Below the pieces are notes generated by a model. It made no database searches. It saw only the letters and a list, made by a program, of their open reading frames with translations, and was not told the DNA's origin. A stretch of 20,014 nt of DNA from Candidatus Wukongarchaeum yapensis (lineage in GTDB: Archaea; Asgardarchaeota; Wukongarchaeia; Wukongarchaeales; Wukongarchaeaceae), in assembly GCA_016840425.1 (NCBI GenBank), contig JAEOSI010000018.1:1-20014 (forward strand), given 5' to 3'. Position numbers and translations under genes: made by a program. This document shows positions 1,537-17,100 of the stretch, in pieces (the first letter of the stretch is position 1; each line of letters begins with the position of its first letter).

Positions 1537-2211
1537 ATGTTGGGAAAATTGAGGCGAAAGCAGAGGATAATGTTTAGTTTGTTATTTGTGATTATTTTTG
1601 TTGTGGCGGTTTTTTCTGTTCAAAGTTTTGGGCAAAACGTTCAGGCAAATGGAGGGGAATTGGAGCCGGGAGATGTTGTTGAGGGTTATCTTGATGGTTC
1701 AGACGTTTTAGAGAATTATGATGTTTATTTGGTAGTTTTAGAGGAGGGGAAGAATTATGCTTTTCAGATCCAAGCCTTTGATGATGATGATTTTGATATT
1801 TATCTTTTAACTGAAAATTATTCGAATCTTCCTCCAGATCCTGATATTAGCACGAGGATTAATGAGGAGCTTGAAGAGTATCTTATAGCCTATTCGAATC
1901 AGACTACGGACTCTTCTACTGTGGATAGGATTGTTTGGGAGGCTGATAATAGCGGTGAGTATTATATTTGTCCCATAGCTAAGGAGGGAGAGAAGGGGAA
2001 GTATGAACTAAAGTTTGATATCACGGGAGGAATTTTGCCTATTATACTAATAGGAACGATTTTTGTCGCACCTTTTCTTGCCTTATTATTATATTTAAAT
2101 AGGGGTAAAAAGAAGCCCCCTCAAAAATATTGCATTAAATGTGGAGCGGAACTTTTAGAAGGCGCAAATTTCTGCATTAAATGTGGAAAAAAAATTTGGG
2201 GTTATAGGTAG
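1537..2211 (+). CDS. Membrane-anchored surface protein: N-terminal signal/TM, acidic PPC-like beta-sandwich, TM helix, C-terminal zinc ribbon
   Basis: Hydrophobic IMFSLLFVIIFVVAVFSV. PPC-like pattern DVYLVVLEEGKNYAFQI....DDDFDIYLL...SGEYYI.......GKYEL. Second TM ILPIILIGTIFVAPFLALLLYL, then KKK and CIKCG-x9-CIKCG. Confidence 0.75.
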   Translation: MLGKLRRKQRIMFSLLFVIIFVVAVFSVQSFGQNVQANGGELEPGDVVEGYLDGSDVLENYDVYLVVLEEGKNYAFQIQAFDDDDFDIYLLTENYSNLPPDPDISTRINEELEEYLIAYSNQTTDSSTVDRIVWEADNSGEYYICPIAKEGEKGKYELKFDITGGILPIILIGTIFVAPFLALLLYLNRGKKKPPQKYCIKCGAELLEGANFCIKCGKKIWGYR

Positions 2212-2902: not shown

Positions 2903-5032
2903 TTAAGGAGAATTAGTTGTTTCTGTGGTTTCTTTACTGTTTTCGTTTTCTTTTTTTTGTTTTATCTTTTCGAGGGGTTTTAGGGTTTTTCCTTTGATTT
3001 TTGAGCCGCAAGATGGACATTCGCCTTTGGTACGTAAATATTCGAGCAAGTGGGATTTGTGAGCGGGTTTATTGCATTTTGGGCAGACTTTTGCGTCTTC
3101 ACCGTTTTGTATAGGGTTATTGCACACGCTGCACCAGGGGATTTTTTCTTTGCATGAACTACACTTTTCTTCGACAGCGAGGGTTAATTCACCGCACCAG
3201 TAACATTTAGCTCTGAATCGTGGATCTAGTGGATGGGGGCCCGACTCTATTATCAGTTTGTTGTTTTCTATTTTTCCTTTGAAGATTCCTTCTCCTAAGA
3301 GAAGGGAGTACATGAGTACTACTTCGTCTTTTGGGAGACCTAATTTTTCAGCGATTTGTTTTATTTTGATTTCTTCTTCGTCCTTTAAAAGGTCTGTAAG
3401 TTCTTGAAATTTGCCTCCTAGCTCTTTTGGGGTACGGGCGACTAAAATTTGTGGTGGATTTGGTAGATGGAACTCATTATTTACGATGTCAACGGTTATG
3501 ATACCTTGGCTTATTAATTTGTAAATCTCGCATTGAACGTTTTCCCTTGGGGTTTTAAGTAGATTTGATAGGTTTTTTGGATTTAGTGTAGATTTTCCAA
3601 GCATGTAGCCTAAAATTGTGCGGGTGGTTTCTGGGAGGGAGTAGAATGGTGGTGAAAAGGGGTTAGGCGGTCGGTATTCTAATGTGAATGTTCCGTTGGT
3701 CATTTGGCCTTTTATGAAGTTTTCAGCAAGGAGATCATAGATAATGTTTTCTTCTTCATTTTCTGTTATTATTTTTCTTTCTTCTTCTGGGCTTTTATTA
3801 GTGCATGAGATGAGGAGTTTACGTATAAAGCTTGTTGTCAAGGTTTTATGTGCGATAATCGCCCCTAAAGTTATGAGTTCTTTTTCGTTGAGTTCGCGTG
3901 AGTAAGGGCTGGGAAGTTTTGGGGGTTTTTTCAAAACGAAGATATCATCTTTGTTTATGAAACCGTTAATAATGCCGTAGAGTAAGAGGTCAAATATTAA
4001 TCTTAATAGGTCTATTTCTGCCACGTTGAGCTTTTTCTTCATTTGTTTTATGGGTATTGATTTATAGGCAATTATCATTCCTGTTACTTTTTTATGGGAG
4101 TCACTTAGTTCTTCAATATCCATGGTTTGGCTTATTTCTGAAAGATTTTCCAGGCGGATTTTATCTTCTTCAAAGTATACGTTTATTGTTCCGTCACAAG
4201 CCAGGGAGTATATGTTTTTTCTTAAGGTTAATTCGTCTTGAGATATGAGATGAGATGCTTTTTTGACTTCAATTTCCTTGTATGCTACTAAAAGACCCAC
4301 CACATCTCTAAGTCCGCCTTCTAAAAGATAGGGATCTACGGGTAGCTGATCAAAAGATAGTTTTTCTAGGGAGAAGTCTTGCTTTTCTCTAAATTTTCCT
4401 GTTATGGTGCCTTCAGCAACAAGTCTGAGCAAAGTTGAAATTACGTCTTTTTTATCTCTTCCTAAAAGCTCTGATAATTTACGGATATTCTGGAGTTCAT
4501 GGGTTAATAATAAGCCTATAAGTTCTTTTTCTTCAGGTTCTAACTCGTTTAAATCCCGTGGAGAACTAACAGTTACGAAATCTACCAGAAAGAAGCCATT
4601 TTTAGTACAGATAGCGCATACAGATTTGGAAGCTAAGCGATAAATTACATCTAATATTTCCTCGTTTTTTAGGGAGAGTATTTTCCCTATTTCGCTTACT
4701 TTAATACCATCAGGATGACTCATCAAAAGACCCAATACTTTTATCTCTTTTTCAGAGAGATCGGAAAAATCGGCTCTTAAGGGGCCGATTTTAAAGCTTG
4801 ACACGATGAAATTATTACCCTCATATTTGCCGCTTAAAACGCCATTTTCAGGACCAATAAGCAGTTTGAACAGTTCTGAGACCTGTTCTTTTTTAAGATC
4901 AAGTAATTTGGCCAAGGTTTTTGCTTCTAAAGCTCCATAGATGGTAGCATACCCTATAAACCTCATAATTTGAAGATCGTTAAGCCATGGAACCCTTGAC
5001 TTAATTTGTTCTTGAAGTGTTTCTACTATCAT
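2903..5032 (-). CDS. Protein with eight tandem PCI-like winged-helix repeats and a C-terminal zinc ribbon + RING-like finger
   Basis: Eight ~72-85 aa units of the form L...E...LG....H....I..L...L......V...IY.L...G.I.G.F....F.L, followed by CYWC-x10-CSSC and CSVC-x12-CPKC-x4-H-x2-H-x10-CPSC. ATG at 5032 has GGTGA 7 nt upstream; the ORF track starts at the TTG at 5035. Confidence 0.8.
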   Translation of the reverse strand: MIVETLQEQIKSRVPWLNDLQIMRFIGYATIYGALEAKTLAKLLDLKKEQVSELFKLLIGPENGVLSGKYEGNNFIVSSFKIGPLRADFSDLSEKEIKVLGLLMSHPDGIKVSEIGKILSLKNEEILDVIYRLASKSVCAICTKNGFFLVDFVTVSSPRDLNELEPEEKELIGLLLTHELQNIRKLSELLGRDKKDVISTLLRLVAEGTITGKFREKQDFSLEKLSFDQLPVDPYLLEGGLRDVVGLLVAYKEIEVKKASHLISQDELTLRKNIYSLACDGTINVYFEEDKIRLENLSEISQTMDIEELSDSHKKVTGMIIAYKSIPIKQMKKKLNVAEIDLLRLIFDLLLYGIINGFINKDDIFVLKKPPKLPSPYSRELNEKELITLGAIIAHKTLTTSFIRKLLISCTNKSPEEERKIITENEEENIIYDLLAENFIKGQMTNGTFTLEYRPPNPFSPPFYSLPETTRTILGYMLGKSTLNPKNLSNLLKTPRENVQCEIYKLISQGIITVDIVNNEFHLPNPPQILVARTPKELGGKFQELTDLLKDEEEIKIKQIAEKLGLPKDEVVLMYSLLLGEGIFKGKIENNKLIIESGPHPLDPRFRAKCYWCGELTLAVEEKCSSCKEKIPWCSVCNNPIQNGEDAKVCPKCNKPAHKSHLLEYLRTKGECPSCGSKIKGKTLKPLEKIKQKKENENSKETTETTNSP

Positions 5033-5134
5033 CAAAATATCACCAAAAGGAAAAGCCCTAATATTATTAACGAAGATATTTATAAAAAATCCTTTGATTT
5101 TTTATATTCTGGATAATTATGTGATTTAATAAGG

Positions 5135-5870: not shown

Positions 5871-6482
5871 TTAGGTCTCTTGGAGGATTATTTTAAGGAA
5901 ATATTCGTGGAATCGGGTGTCATCGGTAAGTTCGGGATGAAAAGCGGTGGCAAGTATGTTTTCTTGGCGGACTGCAACAACAATATCTTCTAACCTTGCT
6001 AAAATTTCAACGTTTTCTCCTATTTCTTCTATGGCAGGAGCGCGTATAAAAACGCCTTTGAAAGGTTTATCGCCTAAAATGGGGACGAGGAGGTCTGTTT
6101 CAAAACTTTCTCTTTGTCTGCCAAAATAGTTACGCGAAACGGTAACATTTAGAAGGCCTAAAGTAGGCTGATTTATCTCCCCGACCACCCGATCGTAGAC
6201 GTTTCTAGCAAAAACAATTAATCCAGCACAGGTTCCAAATAAGGGAACTTTTTTGGAAGAGAGCTGTTTAATGGTAGAAAAAACGTTTAAACGGGAAGAA
6301 ACTTTCCCAAAAACAGTACTTTCTCCACCTGTGATTATAAGACCGTCAAGTCCCTCTATTTCTTCAGGCTTTTTAACGACTAAAACTTCGCCTTTTAAGC
6401 TAAGCTTTTCTAAAGCGTTCTCTGTGATATCGACATGTTCTTCTAAATCGCCTTGTAATCCAAGAACACCTATTGTAACCAC
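5871..6482 (-). CDS. pdxT: Pyridoxal 5'-phosphate synthase glutaminase subunit
   Basis: IGVLGLQGDLEEH, GGEST, FGTCAGLI (catalytic Cys), RNYFGRQRESF, FIRAP and AFHPEL (His-Glu). GGAGG RBS before the GTG. Confidence 0.97.
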   Translation of the reverse strand: MVTIGVLGLQGDLEEHVDITENALEKLSLKGEVLVVKKPEEIEGLDGLIITGGESTVFGKVSSRLNVFSTIKQLSSKKVPLFGTCAGLIVFARNVYDRVVGEINQPTLGLLNVTVSRNYFGRQRESFETDLLVPILGDKPFKGVFIRAPAIEEIGENVEILARLEDIVVAVRQENILATAFHPELTDDTRFHEYFLKIILQET

Positions 6483-6556
6483 CGTTTTGTAACCTCCTTA
6501 AAAAATTAGGTTAGATTTTGTTCGATGAAAGAGTTAAATAGAAGAGGGGTCTTTTT

Positions 6557-7540
6557 CTAGATTTTTGAGCCTCTTTCTTGCATTTTTAATTCGAGGTCGT
6601 GTATGTCTAACCCGGGCATAGCTTTTGTCTCGAGGACCATTTTTTGGGCTTCTGCCACTATTTCAGGGTCTTCCCAATAGGAAACTGCAAGAACCATGGC
6701 ATTAGCACGAATTTCAGGGTCGCTCGATTTGTAAATACCTGACCCCACAAAAACACCGTCACATCCAAGGGACATTAAGAAGGCAGCGTCACTGGGAGTC
6801 GCTATGCCGCCGGCTGCAAAATTAACGACAGGTAATCGCCCTAATTTCGCTGTTTCTTTGGCTATGTCATAGGAGACTTTTAGTTTTCTTGCAGTTTTTA
6901 TTAATTCTTGGTCTTCATCGATTATTGATGTCAGCCAGCGTGTTTGGTTATTTAATTTTTTTATGTGTCTGACTGCTTCTGCTACATTTCCTGTACCGGG
7001 CTCGCCTTTAGTTCTTATCATTGCAGCGCCTTCTTCGGTTCTTCTTAAAGCTTCTCCAAGATCCCTTGCACCGTTGACAAAGGGCGTTGTGAAGTCCCAT
7101 TTCCATATGTGTCGCTCTTCGTCGGCGGGGGTTAAAACTTCGCTTTCATCAATCATGTCAACGCCTAAGACTTCTAGGACCTTGGCTTCGTAGGTGTGGC
7201 CTATCCTGCATTTAGCCATTACGGGGATTGTTACATTGTCAAGTATATCTTCAATAATTGTTGCACTGGCGGTTCTTGCTACTCCTCCTGCCCGCCTGAC
7301 ATCGGCGGGGAGCTTGTCCAGAACCATGATGGCGGTGGCTCCAGCATCTTCTGCGATCTGTGCTTGTTCAACGCTTGTAACGTCCATTATTACGCCGTGT
7401 TTGCACATCTTGGCAAAACCGCGCTTAACGCGGACTGTGCCGCGTGTTAATTGTGACTTTCCTAAAAATGTTTGAACTCTTCCATAGTTTATTATTTTCT
7501 CCATTTTGTTAAACGACTCCAAATAATGATAAACTGTCAT
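6557..7540 (-). CDS. pdxS: Pyridoxal 5'-phosphate synthase lyase subunit
   Basis: [60 protein letters not shown] and [12 protein letters not shown]. It carries the long archaeal-type N-terminus. Confidence 0.97.
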
Positions 7541-8944: not shown

Positions 8945-10240
8945 TTAACTTGGCTCTTCCTCGCCTGTCTTCTTTTTTAAACGTTCTTTAACAAATTCGT
9001 CGTAGGCGATAATTATCATTACTGCAAGAAGGGAGTTTATTGCAAAAATGATTAAACCGTAACTTATGACTATGTTCCACATAAAAACGCTGATCATCTT
9101 TGACTCCAGGGGCTCGTAGGTTAGGAATATTAGCCATAAAGGCATTCCTATCACAGGTCCAAATATCGGGGAAAGCCACCCTAAGTTGACACGTTTGATG
9201 TTGCCTTCGCTTTCACCTAGAATAAATAATGTAAGGCCTATTGTTATAACTATGAGGAGGAGACTTAAGACGTAGAAAATGTTTCCGTTAAAAGCGTAGA
9301 ATTTTGAGAGGGATTTATGGGCAAAAAAGTCTTCTATTGCCCGAAGACTATTTCCAGTTATAGAACTTCCTAAGGGACCACTATCTATTTTGGAGAAGCC
9401 TAGTTCTTTTGCTCCAAAGAAAATCCATCCCAAGATAAATACAAGGGGAGCTATGCAAAATCCTATCCCTATATTTTTGATGACCCTCCATTTTGCAACA
9501 TCTTTTTTCAGAGTTGTTGTCGATAAAACTAAGAGGGAAGAGCATAGGACCAAGATCGAGATCAGAAAAACGACATCTAAAGTAATGGACCCTAAATCCC
9601 AGTTGTAAGCACTTTTCATAGCATTTTTGTAACCCTTATCTTCAGCAAGATTTCTTACCCAATAGCTCGTAAATACCGCCACCACTCCGAGAATCCCACA
9701 GGCTATACTTGTTAATTTAAGGGCGATTTTAGAACCAAAATCCGCATACGCTAAAAACCCGGTTAATATACATGCAGGAATGTAAAACATCCATAACGAT
9801 AAAGGACTAATATGCCAACTTTCAGGAACGCCCGCGCCAGCAATAGTACCTATTATAAAACACCCGTAAAAGTTTTTAGAAATAGCAGACCCAGCAAGGG
9901 CTAAAGCAGGAGCTATCGATAAAGCAAGAGGTATGTAAACCGAACCGATATCAACGGATAACTCAAAAAATTCTACGATAAACGCCAAAAAGCCGAAAAT
10001 AAGGACGATAAATAAAGATTCAACGGTAAAAAAATTAATAACGCTGAAAAAACCTTCCTCCCTGGTCATTAAAAGTTTTTTAGGAGCTTCAGCTTCAGAG
10101 ACTTTCTTTTTCAATACTTTTAACTCACCTTCAAGCTTTTTCCTCTCCTCTTTGATCCCACTAGCAGATAATTCACCAGATTCAACACTTTCTTTAAACT
10201 CCTCAAGCAATTTTTTCACGTCATCAAAATCACTACTCAA
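8945..10240 (-). CDS. Uncharacterised polytopic membrane protein (~10 TM) with an N-terminal charged helical (SHOCT-like) segment
   Basis: Long ORF with about ten hydrophobic segments. N-terminus DFDDVKKLLEEFKESVESGELSASGIKEERKKL. TTG at 10240 follows a GGTGG RBS-like element; the ORF track start at 10267 is an alternative. Confidence 0.75.
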   Translation of the reverse strand: MSSDFDDVKKLLEEFKESVESGELSASGIKEERKKLEGELKVLKKKVSEAEAPKKLLMTREEGFFSVINFFTVESLFIVLIFGFLAFIVEFFELSVDIGSVYIPLALSIAPALALAGSAISKNFYGCFIIGTIAGAGVPESWHISPLSLWMFYIPACILTGFLAYADFGSKIALKLTSIACGILGVVAVFTSYWVRNLAEDKGYKNAMKSAYNWDLGSITLDVVFLISILVLCSSLLVLSTTTLKKDVAKWRVIKNIGIGFCIAPLVFILGWIFFGAKELGFSKIDSGPLGSSITGNSLRAIEDFFAHKSLSKFYAFNGNIFYVLSLLLIVITIGLTLFILGESEGNIKRVNLGWLSPIFGPVIGMPLWLIFLTYEPLESKMISVFMWNIVISYGLIIFAINSLLAVMIIIAYDEFVKERLKKKTGEEEPS

Positions 10241-10379
10241 CCTTAACCACCCGAATATACAAAACATAAAAAATGAAAAAACAATTTTTATGCTAAGTTT
10301 GTTAACCCCTCCTATTTTTTAACTTATTCGTTAAAAAAACCTCATTTCAACAAAAAGGGAAAAAATCAGGATGCTTATA

Positions 10380-11997: not shown

Positions 11998-14900
11998 TTA
12001 GCTTCCTACTCTTCCTATATAGCCAGTTTTTGGTTCATATAACATGCCTTCATCTTTTAGCTGCTTCATTATGCGCCCAAAAGATTTTTCGTCTATTCCT
12101 TGGGCTATTGCCTCTTCTTGGAGTTTTTGAAGGGGTACTTCTTTTCCATATTCGGGTTCTAAATCGCTTAGAATATCGATTATTTTTTCCATCTTTGTTC
12201 GGATGCTCATGGGTTTTCCTGTCATTATGGTGTCTATGTCGATCATGCCTGTTTCTTGGTCTATGCCTACTTGTTGGAGAGAGGATTGGACTAATTGAAT
12301 GCTTGCTTCTGCGTCTTCTAAAGTAACGACGTCGCGAAAGGCCATTCTGGCTCTACTTTCTGCCAGCCTTATAAGGGACTCTAATTGTCTTGCGGTAATG
12401 GCTATAGGCGTCTTTTTACTTTCACTAATAGATCTTATTTGGACGTAATAGTCCTCCAAACGTTTTACAGCTTCTTCGCTCAAAATAGGGTGAATGTTTT
12501 TCCTTGCATAGCTTATATATTTTCTTAAAAGGTCTTGGGTTATTGGAGGTTCTGCTGTTTCTTCTGGGGTTTGATGTAGTTTCAATATGTGGGAAGCAAG
12601 GGCACGGTCAGCTGCACTTTCGGGGATATCGGTCATTATGAAAATAAGGTCAAATCTTGAAAGGATTGTTACAGGGAGTTTAATATTTTCGGCAGGGGTC
12701 CGATAAGCATCATATCTTCCGAAAGCAGGGTTAGCGGCAGCGAGAATCGAGGTTCTAGCGTTTAAGGTAGCCACTATTCCTGCCTTTGCTATACTTATTG
12801 TATGTTGTTCCATTGCTTCATGAATGGCTACCCTGTCGGTTGCTTCCATTTTATCAAATTCATCAATGCAATTATGCACTATGATTCCGCCACACAAAAA
12901 GTTGTGGTATTTTGGGATGTAAATATCGTAGACGTATCCTGAGTATTTCTCTGTTTTTATTTCAACTATCTTATCTAGGAAGTAGTCCCGAGTTGTCAGT
13001 AGTTCTATTTGTCTTCCTAGTTTTTCATCTAGAAAGTCGAAAATTTCATTTCTAATTTTTAGAAGTTGTTGTCTGGAGGGCTGATATCTTTTATTTTTAT
13101 ACGCATAAAGGGTGCTCCATATACCCTTTTTAAGCAAGACAGATTTGTTTATGGAAGATATTATTTGAGTGCTTATTTTTGCAACTGGAGAGTTTGGAAG
13201 TTTATCGCTAAGAGAAGAAACCAAATGTTTTCTAGTAGGGATCGTTTTGATTTTGATGCTGTATTTTTTAATGTCGTTTAAAAGTCGACTGACATCTTCT
13301 CTTCCAGTTATTAGAATCTTATTTACTCCTTTACCTTTTCTAAGTTTTGCAAAGCAATCAAATCGTCTTAAAGCAAGCATAAACGCTTTGTTTTCTTCTT
13401 CATTCTTCGATAGCTGAAAGTCTACGTGTACGGTTTCATAGATTTTATCTGATTTTCTTCCTCTCTTAACTGAAATACACCCATCAGAATCTAAGCAACC
13501 TGCAATAAATGCTTTCAAAGCCTCGTCAGGTAGTTTTAAAAGATTTTTTAGCCCTTCTCCAACCACATAACTGTAAATGTATGCTAGTAAATTAGAGTTA
13601 GCATATAAAATGATGTTTTCACTTTCTACTTTTTGTCCTCTTATTAAACTTTCACTTTTCCTCCTATACTCTCCAAGTTTCCTTTGTGAAAAACTATGAA
13701 ACATATTCTTAAGAAGTTCTATTTGTTTTCTGTTTTTCAATGATTGAGTTATTGATATTCTTGACCTTCTGGACGAAATGTTAACGTCGCCATCACCGTA
13801 GACAAATCCGAGAAAATATGCCAGCTCGGGGGTTATCTTATTAGCTTTTAACATTTCTCCTGAAGCTTTTCTACCATATTTAAGGTATTTATTTCTCCAT
13901 TCCTCATACCATCCTAGATCTTTTAATATTTCTCTCAGTTTACCGACCTTTATTTGACTTCTACCAGAAAGGAAATCCTTTGATATATTGTATTTTCTAT
14001 TAAATTCACTTAGGCTTTTATAAATAGCAATTATTTTCCCTTTGAGTTCCATCTTTTCTTTTTTTCCGAGGATGACGAGCCAATTATCCGGGATGATGTC
14101 GAGAAAATATATGTTTTCCTTATTCTCGGGAAGTTTTAGAGGAGCAATTACGAAATCGCCCTCCTTAAATTTTCCAGCATCTCTCCACTCCAGTGTATTT
14201 CCATCTAGAAGTTTGTGATCTGGGGTGACTTTCACTTTAAATCCAGAAGTTAGAGATACTTCAAGTATCTCGCCTTTATACTTCTTTCTTCTAATTAGTA
14301 AAGATCTTGAAGATGCTGTTTTAAGCCTAGAGTCGATGGAAATAATATTTGCATCTAATTCGCATATTTCAACTTCTTCGTTCCCAGATCGAGTCTTAAA
14401 TTTCCTTCTCTCATCGAAAAGACTCTCTATATTGACTATTCTATTATCGATTAAAACTTTTGAGCCCTCATGTAGGCATGCAACGCCCCGGTCAGCTAAA
14501 ATTAGGGCTCCTGCTTCCAGGATGAAGTCTCCCGTGTCTGAATCTCTCAAAACTGCAGCGGTTAAACCGGCGGCCGTGCTGCCTTTTCCGGAGGTGTATA
14601 GCGCGCGGGGAGCGGTGGCTGAAACGTATTTCAGTAGTTGGCTGTTGTGGACATATATGCCATTAGCTACAAAATTATGAGTTTCAGGGACTTGTAAATC
14701 ATATACCCATTCAAAGTCCGGTTTAATTTTTTGAATTGAAATGATTTTGTCCCAAAACACATCTGTATCGGCTATGGTTCTTAGTTGATTGAGTTTATCA
14801 TTATCTCCGTATTTTTCTAGTTCTTTTATTATTACTTTTAGATTTGTCCTAGATGGATTTCTGTCTCCCCTCTCATAATGTTGATAGGTAGATCTCGCTA

Positions 14901-17100
14901 ATCCCATTTGTGATTGAGTAAGATTTCTCTTTTTACGCAATTCTAAAAGTAGATCCTTTAAACTTGGGATAATATCAATGTTAGTGTTAGAACTTAGGTT
15001 TTTATTTAACTTCTCTTTTTTAGATGAATTTAATCCTATCTTATCTTTGAATCGATTAAATTGATCAATTGAAGTTATTTTCAATCGATTATATCGTTTT
15101 TTATCGGAACTTTGACTTCTTGAATGTGAATAACCCAATTGTGATATAATTTCAAATCTGTTTAACAGCAATTGAATATCTGATAATAACCTCTTACTGG
15201 AAGAAGAAACTGAAATGGTAGCACGATTTTTGTCCACATAACCATCGGTATCATAATATGCTTTAAGAAATTCACTAACTGTTCCATTAGGCGATCTCAT
15301 AATAATTGAAGGAACCTGTTTATTTTCAGCACCCTTATAAAAGGAGGGTGAGGTATTTTCTAAAAACCTTCCAAGTTCAATGGATGAAATATATATATCT
15401 CGAGCAGATTTTCTTGGTCGGCTTGGTCTAATATTATAATTAATATTACCGAAAGACTCTTTTGCACAATTTATATAATCCGTTAAGATTTGTCTTTCAT
15501 TATTAGTAAACCATGTGCATGCTGTTTTTGTTCTTTGTACGCAGCCGTCTCCACAAATATAACCTAAAAATCTAGCTAGTTCTTTGGTTACTTTTCTTGG
15601 AACATAGATATGTTTCGCGTTAGTCTTACCTTTTTCAAATTTAATATCAATTTTATCATTTGGACTAGAAGGAATATATCGTGGGGTGGCAATAAAATCT
15701 CCAATTTCTAGTTCTTTAGCTTCTTTTGATAAAATCAATCCATTTTTTGTTATAAAGAAAGGGTGGGTGGGGGTTACTATAATCTCTTTAACGCTAGATG
15801 TTTTTACCTCATACATATATTCGGGGGCTTTTCTTTTCCAAAAAATATTAGCATAAGCAAGTTTAGCTTTTCCGTTTTTATCCATTGTTATTATGGGTTG
15901 TGATCCTTTTGCATAAAACCCATCATCAATCTCGTTAATATTGTCCTTTAATGCATCTTCTACTATTTGTTCAATATTTTTAACCTCACCAGATCCCATT
16001 ATGACCCTAGTTCCAGGCGCAACACATTTAGCCACGCCGGGGTCTCCTATTAGGAGTAGGTTTGATTCTCCCCGTATTTTTATGCCGTCGGGTAAAACTT
16101 TTGGGTTACCGCCGAAGAGTAGTAGGGCTACTGCTTCTTTTATAGCCTCATAGCCGTAGATCGAGGGGGCGATGCTTTTCGTTATTTTTTGGTGTATAAA
16201 AGGATCTCTTGCTAATTCTTTTATTTGCTCTTCTTCTTCGGCGTTTATTTCAAATTCTTCATATTCTTTCCCGAAAGTTTTTAGTTGGAGCAAATCAAGG
16301 TATGTGTGGAAGGTGGCTAGTTTTATGCCGCGTCGTGTAAAATCAGGAAAAGCGCGTAGAATTCCTGTGACGGTAATACGATCCCCGGGCCTTGCAATGT
16401 CGACAAGATCATCTAACAAAGTAGCGTCTATTGAGCGGGGGATTTGGCCTGGTGGGAGTTCTTCTGGGCGTTCTTGAAGCGTTATTTTTTGCCAGTCAAT
16501 ATATTTGCTTTCTTCTTGGAGAAGTTTAAAAGTTCCTGATTTTAGGCAGGTGGGATTTGGGCATTTTGAAGGTTTTGTAAAACGGCCTCTCTCCTGCTCT
16601 ATGTAAACTTCTTCACCGCAGAATCCACATTTGAAAACGCCTTCAATTAGGAGGGGTTTTACTATGGTTACCCTTGTAAGTATCCCATCGATAGAAATTA
16701 ATTTGCCTAGATGAATAGCGCGTAGTGCGCGTAAATTTACGCGTTCAGTCGAGTTGAAAAATCGTGCATGGAACTCTTTTACACGCTCTGCGTGACTGGG
16801 ATCTTCTATTTTAACTAGTTCTTTAATAGCCGCTTTTGCATATGGAATATAGTTATCAGGGTTTTCAAGGAGTTGATCTGCTAATTCTGAATCATAAGTC
16901 ATTAGATCCATTAAATCGATTTCTAAGGATCTTTTATCTTCTAGAGATAGGCGTTTTATGGCTTCAAAATATCTTTTGTTGCCGTTTTCGTCTTCAAATT
17001 CTTTGAAAAATTCGGTAAAGCTCTCTAATGTTGCGGAAATAGTTTCTTCTTCTTCTCCTTCTCCCTCTTCTTCAAAATCTTCCCCTATATCTTCAACCAT
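11998..17100 (-). CDS. mcm: MCM replicative helicase precursor (1700 aa) with two inteins; spliced product 703 aa
   Basis: N-domain with C4 Zn finger (CGFC...CPNPTC) and QERPEELPPGQIPR. After splicing: Walker A GDPGVAK|SQLL, Walker B GVA|CIDEFDKM, sensor-1 AAANP, arginine finger ILSRFDL, sensor-2 ITARQLESLIRL, and a C-terminal wH. GGTGA RBS. Confidence 0.98.
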   Translation of the reverse strand: MVEDIGEDFEEEGEGEEEETISATLESFTEFFKEFEDENGNKRYFEAIKRLSLEDKRSLEIDLMDLMTYDSELADQLLENPDNYIPYAKAAIKELVKIEDPSHAERVKEFHARFFNSTERVNLRALRAIHLGKLISIDGILTRVTIVKPLLIEGVFKCGFCGEEVYIEQERGRFTKPSKCPNPTCLKSGTFKLLQEESKYIDWQKITLQERPEELPPGQIPRSIDATLLDDLVDIARPGDRITVTGILRAFPDFTRRGIKLATFHTYLDLLQLKTFGKEYEEFEINAEEEEQIKELARDPFIHQKITKSIAPSIYGYEAIKEAVALLLFGGNPKVLPDGIKIRGESNLLLIGDPGVAKCVAPGTRVIMGSGEVKNIEQIVEDALKDNINEIDDGFYAKGSQPIITMDKNGKAKLAYANIFWKRKAPEYMYEVKTSSVKEIIVTPTHPFFITKNGLILSKEAKELEIGDFIATPRYIPSSPNDKIDIKFEKGKTNAKHIYVPRKVTKELARFLGYICGDGCVQRTKTACTWFTNNERQILTDYINCAKESFGNINYNIRPSRPRKSARDIYISSIELGRFLENTSPSFYKGAENKQVPSIIMRSPNGTVSEFLKAYYDTDGYVDKNRATISVSSSSKRLLSDIQLLLNRFEIISQLGYSHSRSQSSDKKRYNRLKITSIDQFNRFKDKIGLNSSKKEKLNKNLSSNTNIDIIPSLKDLLLELRKKRNLTQSQMGLARSTYQHYERGDRNPSRTNLKVIIKELEKYGDNDKLNQLRTIADTDVFWDKIISIQKIKPDFEWVYDLQVPETHNFVANGIYVHNSQLLKYVSATAPRALYTSGKGSTAAGLTAAVLRDSDTGDFILEAGALILADRGVACLHEGSKVLIDNRIVNIESLFDERRKFKTRSGNEEVEICELDANIISIDSRLKTASSRSLLIRRKKYKGEILEVSLTSGFKVKVTPDHKLLDGNTLEWRDAGKFKEGDFVIAPLKLPENKENIYFLDIIPDNWLVILGKKEKMELKGKIIAIYKSLSEFNRKYNISKDFLSGRSQIKVGKLREILKDLGWYEEWRNKYLKYGRKASGEMLKANKITPELAYFLGFVYGDGDVNISSRRSRISITQSLKNRKQIELLKNMFHSFSQRKLGEYRRKSESLIRGQKVESENIILYANSNLLAYIYSYVVGEGLKNLLKLPDEALKAFIAGCLDSDGCISVKRGRKSDKIYETVHVDFQLSKNEEENKAFMLALRRFDCFAKLRKGKGVNKILITGREDVSRLLNDIKKYSIKIKTIPTRKHLVSSLSDKLPNSPVAKISTQIISSINKSVLLKKGIWSTLYAYKNKRYQPSRQQLLKIRNEIFDFLDEKLGRQIELLTTRDYFLDKIVEIKTEKYSGYVYDIYIPKYHNFLCGGIIVHNCIDEFDKMEATDRVAIHEAMEQHTISIAKAGIVATLNARTSILAAANPAFGRYDAYRTPAENIKLPVTILSRFDLIFIMTDIPESAADRALASHILKLHQTPEETAEPPITQDLLRKYISYARKNIHPILSEEAVKRLEDYYVQIRSISESKKTPIAITARQLESLIRLAESRARMAFRDVVTLEDAEASIQLVQSSLQQVGIDQETGMIDIDTIMTGKPMSIRTKMEKIIDILSDLEPEYGKEVPLQKLQEEAIAQGIDEKSFGRIMKQLKDEGMLYEPKTGYIGRVGS
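12871..14478 (-). mobile_element. Intein 2 in MCM (536 aa) with LAGLIDADG homing endonuclease, inserted just before Walker B
   Basis: Starts CLHEGSKV; block B VTPDH; endonuclease motifs LAYFLGFVYGDG and FIAGCLDSDG; ends VYDIYIPKYHNFLCGGIIVHN followed by Cys+1. Removing it restores ADRGVA-CIDEFDK. Confidence 0.95.
14644..16026 (-). mobile_element. Intein 1 in MCM (461 aa) with LAGLIDADG homing endonuclease and XRE-type HTH, inserted in Walker A
   Basis: Starts CVAPGTRV; block B VTPTH; endonuclease motifs LARFLGYICGDG and FLKAYYDTDG; HTH LRKKRNLTQSQMGLARSTYQHYERG; ends VYDLQVPETHNFVANGIYVHN followed by Ser+1. Removing it restores GDPGVAK-SQLL. Confidence 0.95.

Follow-up and report, generated by a model that had tools for sequence, protein, structure and literature searches.

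A RING-bearing array of eight winged helices in Candidatus Wukongarchaeum yapensis as a candidate single-chain ubiquitin ligase

What might an archaeal cell do with a protein that strings eight winged helices into one chain and ends in a RING finger? The question is raised by a gene within a 20,014-nucleotide stretch of contig JAEOSI010000018.1 (positions 1 to 20,014; hereafter the window) from the Asgard archaeon Candidatus Wukongarchaeum yapensis (assembly GCA_016840425.1), the host genome of 2.16 Mb being 92% complete. The gene is the open reading frame (ORF) at 2903..5035 on the minus strand, which encodes 710 amino acids (aa) if translation starts at the TTG at 5035 and 709 aa if it starts one codon on, at the ATG at 5032, as in the public records, and which ends in a stop codon at 2903-2905. 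Based on its sequence, on predicted structures and on analogy with characterized ligases, we favor, with moderate confidence, the reading that its product is a candidate single-chain RING E3 ubiquitin ligase, in which the winged-helix (WH) array would be an arm that docks a large protein or particle.

Eight units in one chain

A first-pass annotation, made from the sequence alone, had proposed eight tandem winged-helix units between 3244 and 4984. The unit starts that it listed are found at residues 18, 93, 165, 238, 310, 382, 467, and 539, its span agrees with the array that we recovered, which runs from 4984 down to ~3221 in the window, and the helix-wing strings and proline-rich linkers that it singled out are present in the translation. 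The units are 67-85 aa long, typically ~72 aa, and align with one another. When each was scored with a hidden Markov model (HMM) built from the other seven, it obtained 15-37 bits, versus maxima of 5-9 bits across 300 shuffles per unit, and unit HMMs derived from orthologues at most 25% identical to the 710-aa protein were positive for all eight units (5-51 bits). Identity between units is 14-31%, and no DNA-level repeat was seen within the array; the duplications are therefore ancient. A consensus drawn from 28 family members (215 units), LS..E..LLGYL.....I.LK.LA..L.L...EVh..I..LI..GhI.G.h.....F.L.......P, bears out both the helix followed by a G.I.G wing and the linker proline. Hence, one chain contains eight ancient, individually diverged WH domains, with short linkers that contain proline between them.

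An AlphaFold2 model of the 710-aa protein, computed from the 28-sequence family alignment, has a mean predicted local distance difference test (pLDDT) score of 88.2 and a predicted template modeling (pTM) score of 0.75, and gives all eight units the order H1-b1-H2-H3-b2-b3, i.e., a winged helix. Linkers of 8-15 residues, most of them holding a short 3-residue helical turn, separate the units, and a small zinc ribbon and then a RING with a C-terminal helix follow the array. The P0013 orthologue, which is labeled Heimdallarchaeota and is only 20% identical, yields the same eight units (pLDDT 87.6, pTM 0.76), so that every unit is modeled as a winged helix in two orthologues, as the annotation had supposed. 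For a chain of nine domains, pTM values of 0.75-0.76 in two orthologues argue against beads on a string and suggest, within the limits of a prediction, a defined arrangement of the domains.

This architecture is a fixed property of a sizable family. An exhaustive phmmer search returned 612 proteins at E<1e-3, ~25 of which are 680-700 aa long and align end to end at 22-27% identity. Full-length matches, defined by E<1e-120 and coverage of ~1-688 of 689 positions, occur in ~55 of the 400 genomes examined from the phylum, mostly as one ORF of 686-700 aa per genome, and are spread over 7 of 33 family-level groups (the window's own order along with groups f7-f10 and f31); in the remaining groups, only the zinc-ribbon-RING tail was matched. 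The annotation had proposed a survey of repeat number across Asgard homologues, and with a pooled unit HMM, exactly eight units were counted in 39 of 50 RING proteins of 640-740 aa, and seven in another 5. The eight-unit count and a length of ~690-700 aa hold even among orthologues that share only ~20% identity. Members carry the NCBI labels Wukongarchaeota, Hodarchaeota, and Heimdallarchaeota; organism names rest on these three labels, which are inconsistent with GTDB ranks, and one protein labeled “Hodarchaeota” is 83% identical to a protein from a genome in the window's own order. Public annotations read “hypothetical protein” or “RING finger protein”, including an entry 99% identical to the 710-aa protein (“RING finger protein [Candidatus Wukongarchaeota archaeon]”), and our literature searches found no description of this eight-WH RING family.

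The units differ in how strongly they are held in place. Each of those closest to the RING has its own orthologue, as the diagonal scores in the orthologue unit HMM test show (51, 36, 49, and 45 bits from WH5 to WH8); WH1-WH4 were less individualized in that test, and column conservation peaks in WH5-WH7 and in the RING. Shorter paralogues place 1-6 WH domains before the same zinc-ribbon-RING tail. Besides its one full-length member, the host genome encodes ~8 other zinc-ribbon-RING proteins, among them a 312-aa paralogue (C104:906-1454, minus strand; L002) in which a single WH8-like unit precedes the tail. The trio of WH, zinc ribbon, and RING is common to many database relatives, which suggests that WH8, zinc ribbon, and RING form a recurrent three-part module. 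Separately, the same type of WH array is fused, in a 942-aa protein, with a restriction endonuclease domain of Mrr type, or flanked by an N-terminal resolvase and a C-terminal RING in an 892-aa protein (P0082 and P0085).

Winged helices of PCI and DDRGK1 type and their kinship with UFL1

The annotation had further described the units as PCI-like, and here the sequence and the fold give different answers. By sequence, PCI is the best family, and the unit motif LI..GhI.G after helix 3 is of PCI/DDRGK1 type. For the whole protein, Pfam PCI (PF01399) ranks first, its 50.2 bits being the sum of units 5, 7, and 8 (cut-off 22, E 3e-13), a score to be read with the caveat that this model also has matches in 4 of 14 control prokaryote genomes and cross-matches prokaryotic winged helix-turn-helix (wHTH) domains. 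Taken singly, WH5, WH7, and WH8 score 18.7-21.1 bits, each just below the Pfam cut-off, and the alignments reach only profile positions ~23-80 of 84. PCI was matched in 21 of the 28 family members, TrmB, FeoC, or PafC in 8-12, DDRGK in four, and E3_UFM1_ligase in two.

Comparison of unit-wise family profiles with PDB sequences refines this picture along the chain (all coordinates on the minus strand). After an N-terminal lead-in (aa 1-17; 4985..5035) with a short modeled helix at aa 7-14, WH1 (aa 18-92; 4760..4984) matches the archaeal PH1932 wHTH (3.8e-5) and eIF3e (4e-3), and WH2 (aa 93-164; 4544..4759) matches DDRGK1-UFL1 (1.8e-6) and, weakly, the cullin-2 WHB (9e-3). WH3 (aa 165-237; 4325..4543) has Pfam matches to archaeal HVO_A0114 and TrmB, and WH4 (aa 238-309; 4109..4324) is the most acidic unit of the protein, with a net charge of -7. 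WH5 (aa 310-381; 3893..4108), a PCI/DDRGK1-type unit with a net charge of +6, scores 20 bits against Pfam PCI and matches CSN2 (1e-6) and DDRGK1 (6.6e-6). WH6 (aa 382-466; 3638..3892), which in the Wukongarchaeum lineage carries a 13-aa insert between H2 and H3 and is followed by a conserved PxxPPL linker with an invariant P459, matches DDRGK1-UFL1 (2.3e-3). WH7 (aa 467-538; 3422..3637), in which G511 is invariant, scores 18.7 bits against PCI, while WH8 (aa 539-605; 3221..3421), again of PCI/DDRGK1 type, scores 21 bits and matches archaeal AspA (3.5e-5) and DDRGK1 (3.9e-5). For WH3, WH4, and WH7, the family profiles found nothing below E 0.01 among PDB sequences, and units 1, 2, 4, and 6 searched singly gave no clear Pfam match. 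DDRGK1, CSN2, eIF3e, and Rpn9 are the recurring natural PDB matches, PCID2 was matched too, and the DDRGK1 winged helix itself was matched by four unit profiles (WH2, WH5, WH6, and WH8). The top PDB match of WH1, WH2, and WH6 was 8vd6 (“CAP repeat”), a tandem wHTH repeat protein designed de novo (PMC12339374), which we did not count as a sign of kinship.

In three dimensions, the units are more generic. Rigid comparison places WH8 on CSN2, CSN3, and Rpn subunits (Z 8.6-10.2, with CSN2 at Z 10.2 and a root-mean-square deviation (rmsd) of 1.8), and ties these matches with those of WH2 and WH3 to DNA binders, namely WH2 to the N-terminal winged helix of BirA (Z 10.5-11) and WH3 to MarR and Z-alpha (Z ~8.8), with LexA also among the matches of the two. 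Nor do the units extend to a PCI domain: only H1-b1-H2-H3-b2-b3 is modeled, and the helical-repeat (TPR-like) half and the C-terminal bundle helix of PCI proteins are absent. The units therefore share with the PCI subunits found in the lid of the proteasome, in the COP9 signalosome (CSN), and in eIF3 a WH subdomain of the same sequence type, including LI..G.I.G, but not the helical-repeat N-terminal half or the bundle helix, and they lie in one chain instead of six subunits. “PCI-like WH” is thus a fair label, in the sense in which it applies to UFL1, whereas “PCI domain” is not.

These observations bear directly on an account that the annotation had raised as a possibility, in which the array would imitate a PCI horseshoe within a single chain. 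The eight wings would then join edge to edge in one curved sheet like that of the lid, CSN, and eIF3 ring and might recruit an MPN/JAB partner. The rank of PCI as top Pfam family, the close superposition of WH8 on the winged helices of CSN2 and Rpn subunits (Z 9-10, rmsd 1.3-2.2), and the defined global shape implied by a pTM of 0.75 would all fit such a mimic. Yet the units are devoid of the very elements, helical-repeat half and C-terminal helix, by which PCI subunits assemble, the modeled linkers hold no inter-unit strands, and the best collinear match to the array, UFL1/UFBP1, forms an open C-shaped clamp and not a PCI horseshoe (PMC10937380). We hence regard a horseshoe mimic as very unlikely.

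A second account takes the array as a nucleic-acid reader, with eight winged helices binding DNA or RNA, as in SelB, TFIIIC tau138, RPC82/RPC34, or MarR, and a RING modifying chromatin- or RNA-bound proteins. Its structural case consists of the rigid matches of WH2 and WH3, whose best folds are the DNA binders BirA (Z 11), LexA, MarR, and Z-alpha, and of Foldseek matches to TFIIIC tauB (1.4e-5 to 1.9e-4), SelB (1.5e-4 to 7.8e-4), and the Pol III subunits RPC3 and RPC6, to which the Pfam matches to TrmB, FeoC, and PafC in 8-12 of 28 members and the mildly basic character of WH5 (+6) and WH7 can be added. As for regulators of MarR/ArsR type, the picture is mixed, with fold matches of WH2 and WH3 at Z 8-9 that tie with the PCI-type matches of WH8, and with no dimerization helices flanking the units in the model. 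Several units are acidic, however (WH4 -7, WH8 -4), and family mean net charges are near neutral, between -1.7 and +3 per unit with large scatter. The MarR and MarR_2 matches of the whole protein are sub-threshold (E 0.014, 16 bits versus cut-offs of 24.6-27), and the significant sequence matches that recur are to protein-binding winged helices (PCI, DDRGK1, and the cullin WHB). Because of the near-neutral charges and these protein-binding relatives, an array devoted to nucleic acid is the less likely alternative; we consider it unlikely, and the presentation of nucleic acid to the RING, which the annotation had entertained, is not favored.

The nearest structural relative is instead a ligase arm. 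Foldseek places the UFL1-DDRGK1 chimera 8b9x first for both models (probability 1.0, ~290 collinear columns, E 8.6e-6 and 3.0e-6), followed by ribosome-bound UFL1 (1.2e-4 to 2.4e-5) and then by further multi-WH matches to TFIIIC tauB, SelB, Nse1, RPC3, RPC6, ScpB, and ESCRT-II. UFL1/UFBP1 (the latter also named DDRGK1), which is the eukaryotic UFM1 E3 ligase or UREL, is a tandem PCI-like WH array that forms a scaffold-type E3 (PMC9627666). Cryo-electron microscopy of UREL revealed a C-shaped clamp on the 60S subunit with seven winged helices, nearly all of which touch ribosomal proteins and not rRNA (PMC10937380), and five and a half of the seven sit in the single UFL1 chain (PMC9627666, PMC10937380). 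UFL1/UFBP1 thus already provided a precedent, overlooked by the first-pass annotation, for PCI-like winged helices arrayed in a single chain in the service of an E3 ligase. The remaining multi-WH proteins, i.e., the SelB C-terminus (four WH), TFIIIC tau138, RPC82/RPC34, ESCRT-II, and ScpB, also give collinear Foldseek matches (E 1e-5 to 1e-2), and RPC6 is matched by the family profile over WH1-WH2 (5.5e-4), but with 2-4 WH and no RING these proteins serve as adaptors for nucleic acids or in membrane trafficking, and their scores are weaker than those of UFL1/DDRGK1.

The origin of UFL1 and DDRGK1 has been traced to Asgard archaea, and UFM1 and UFC1 are reported only from eukaryotes (PMC10183829). 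In a genome of another Asgard family (G205), a 788-aa ORF (L043:442-2808, minus strand) for a UFL1-like protein of Lokiarchaeial type passes Pfam E3_UFM1_ligase with 52.5 bits; it has N-terminal CxxC zinc fingers, approximately four WH, a beta-rich middle, a helical C-terminus, and no RING, and is probably the “Asgard UFL1” of PMC10183829. Alignment of the eight-WH family to this protein with hhalign gave a probability of 95.4% (E 1.7e-8) over 274 columns, covering four units within WH1-WH5, with a score of 69 for the real sequence versus 12-20 for 15 shuffles and a reversal. A fold search of the ESM Atlas also listed an Asgard cluster annotated PCI / E3_UFM1_ligase / DDRGK, with TM scores of at most 0.29 in every row, and a feature-based protein atlas search returned one match only, which was sub-threshold (0.82).

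This kinship stops short of orthology. The 710-aa protein scores 11.7-13.9 bits against E3_UFM1_ligase (PF09743), below the cut-off of 23.2, and a PF09743 search of the whole host genome gave no match at E<=1. Two of the 28 members have a match at E<=0.01, P0007 with 25.5 bits (above the cut-off) and P0005 with 19.4 bits (below it), and in the genomes holding the eight-WH family, no PF09743 match was found at the eight-WH gene. The eight-WH and L043-type families seem complementary, in a sample of genomes too small to rely on. Furthermore, the collinear alignment to UFL1 has an rmsd of 15-20 Å, which together with the failed cut-off indicates that the eight-WH protein is a relative of UFL1 in repeat type and design, not its orthologue. 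In both, PCI-like WH arrayed in tandem make up the body of the ligase (a candidate one in the case of the eight-WH protein). UFL1, however, lacks a RING, works with UFC1/UFM1, closes with a helical domain, and needs a composite WH split with UFBP1, as opposed to the eight complete WH followed by a zinc ribbon and a RING in the protein described here.

The zinc ribbon-RING tail and the ubiquitin system

The terminal RING reported by the annotation is present, directly C-terminal of the array and a zinc ribbon. The Cys4 zinc ribbon (aa 606-632; 3140..3220, minus strand) is built around C611, C614, C625, and C628, and the RING finger (aa 633-682; 2990..3139, minus strand) around C635, C638, C651, C654, H659, H662, C673, and C676; all twelve ligands are invariant in two alignments of 28 and 33 sequences. 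Judging from sequence spacing, the RING ligands follow the order C4-H2-C2 (C-x2-C-x12-C-x2-C-x4-H-x2-H-x10-C-x2-C), a variant of the canonical C3H2C3. RING fingers contact E2 ubiquitin-conjugating enzymes through a signature composed of a hydrophobic residue after the first cysteine, an aromatic residue in the central helix, and a proline after the seventh cysteine, and the role of such positions has been established from structures of the c-Cbl-UbcH7 type. Their counterparts here, V/I637, W/Y666, and P674, are each 100% conserved in the 33 sequences. The family profile of the RING matches Arkadia/RNF165 RING-H2 best (3.5e-8), then WDR19/IFT144 (1.3e-6) and the RING domains of GATOR2. A Lys/Glu-rich C-terminal tail (aa 683-710; 2906..2989, minus strand) completes the protein, with low model confidence from aa 694.

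The host genome also encodes components of a ubiquitin system. A cluster at C109:16057-17772 (L007, L010, and L011) holds a 77-aa ubiquitin, a 116-aa Rbx1-like RING-H2 protein, a 157-aa ORF without an assigned family, and an E2/UEV-like protein, a second, canonical E2 of 161 aa with an HPN...C motif is located on C135, and three ThiF-type E1-like genes are also found. Combinations of WH and RING are known from other ligases: Nse1 of Smc5/6 is a ubiquitin ligase with WH-WH-RING in one chain, and was retrieved by Foldseek (E 4-6e-3), and cullin-RBX1 and APC2-APC11 pair a WH with a RING as well. These differ from the present family in having two WH (Nse1) or one WHB, not eight, and no zinc ribbon, and no significant sequence kinship to them was shown.

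The same tail gives rise to a rival explanation, in which the zinc-ribbon-RING would be an assembly handle, as in GATOR2 and IFT-A, and the protein a structural subunit without ligase activity. The C-terminal 90 residues indeed match WDR19/IFT144 (1.9e-5; Z 10.2, 29% identity) as well as WDR24, WDR59, and MIOS of GATOR2, which have the zinc ribbon and RING in tandem with similar ligand spacing, and the ~8 further module-bearing proteins of the host genome would be suited to hetero-pairing. However, the bodies of IFT144 and the GATOR2 subunits are made of a beta-propeller and an alpha-solenoid and not of WH arrays, the E2-contact residues are fully conserved in the eight-WH family, and its RING scores best against active RING-H2 ligases. 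A purely non-catalytic scaffold is, in our view, unlikely, though a credible alternative.

Under the favored reading of a single-chain E3 ligase, the array would be a structured protein-docking arm, by analogy with UFL1/UFBP1, that keeps a large substrate, or a particle acting as partner, at a set distance from the E2~ubiquitin bound to the RING, much as the seven-WH arm of UFL1/UFBP1 does on the 60S subunit. WH5-WH8 would probably provide the specific docking surface, given that these units are the most conserved and the most clearly orthologous. As the combination of WH8, zinc ribbon, and RING recurs in many shorter paralogues, it is probably the catalytic or E2-recruiting module. The faster diverging WH1-WH4 may act as a spacer or in lineage-specific recognition.

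Several observations weigh against this reading. The closest non-archaeal zinc-ribbon-RING pair is that of IFT144/WDR19 and GATOR2, in which the module is chiefly structural, and the 710-aa protein (P0001) has a glycine just past the last RING cysteine, where most members have an arginine. WH2 and WH3 resemble DNA-binding winged helices equally well in structure, and a high pTM is the predictor's own estimate of global shape. The large deviation from UFL1 given above extends to a geometry of the array that fits no solved multi-WH protein: a rigid search of solved structures yielded single-unit matches only, with no chain superposing on more than one unit, and UFL1 chains were among those rigidly aligned, none of them within the top 50. 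Finally, the gene neighborhoods at 16 loci hold housekeeping genes only, and no ubiquitin-system genes.

Genomic setting and significance

Within the window, the gene is accompanied by genes for OMP decarboxylase, a DUF2148 protein, an ATP-grasp protein, PdxT/PdxS, TFIIB, an intein-bearing MCM, GINS, and CTP synthase, and across 15 orthologous loci the conserved neighbors are GlnA, an ABC ATPase, a PKD protein, a subtilase, and PdxS/PdxT; this housekeeping synteny offered no clue to function. The PdxT/PdxS genes (5871-7540, minus strand) adjoin the eight-WH RING gene both here and in the distant group f10 (L027 and L028), which may reflect conserved synteny or chance, with no evident functional link. 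Elsewhere in the window, the MCM helicase gene (11998-17100, minus strand; 1700 aa) is split by two inteins, with Pfam matches to two Intein_splicing, two LAGLIDADG_3, and one HTH_3 domains between its OB and P-loop parts. A 224-aa ORF (1537-2211, plus strand) has hydrophobic segments at its N-terminus and near residue 170 along with a C-terminal zinc ribbon (Pfam Zn_Ribbon_1, 1.9e-8), and a 440-aa ORF (8945-10267, minus strand) matches no Pfam family at E<=0.01.

The gene was found in metagenomes of marine sediment, mangrove, marsh, and seawater from 12 studies. In one metatranscriptome (X20), two contigs map within the gene (98.6-99.4% identity), and its downstream neighbor has none; these contigs cover two pieces of the gene, its uncovered parts being uninformative, and provide a weak hint that it is transcribed.

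RING ligases, WH scaffolds, and the design principle that unites them were already known, whereas, as far as our searches show, a conserved chain of eight PCI/DDRGK1-type winged helices with a RING had not been described before. The family adds a large candidate E3 of fixed architecture to the still sparse list of archaeal ubiquitin ligases. Its main interest is that it may be linked to how the UFM1 ligase arose, as Asgard lineages, including Heimdall-labeled genomes, carry a family whose sequence profile and fold both relate it to the UFL1/UFBP1 WH arm. One specific form of this link, which we hold to be quite unlikely, is that the family represents a RING-bearing archaeal sister, or a precursor relic, of UFL1/UFBP1. 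The RING-less, all-WH UFM1 ligase would then descend from a tandem-WH ubiquitin ligase of Asgard archaea whose arm already clamped some large particle, for instance the large subunit of the ribosome, and whose RING was lost once UFC1/UFM1 took over. If the array does dock a defined particle, the way in which tandem WH arms position an E2~ubiquitin-like conjugate could be studied in a single, tractable chain, and the family would be a concrete candidate for what the UFL1 lineage did before UFM1.

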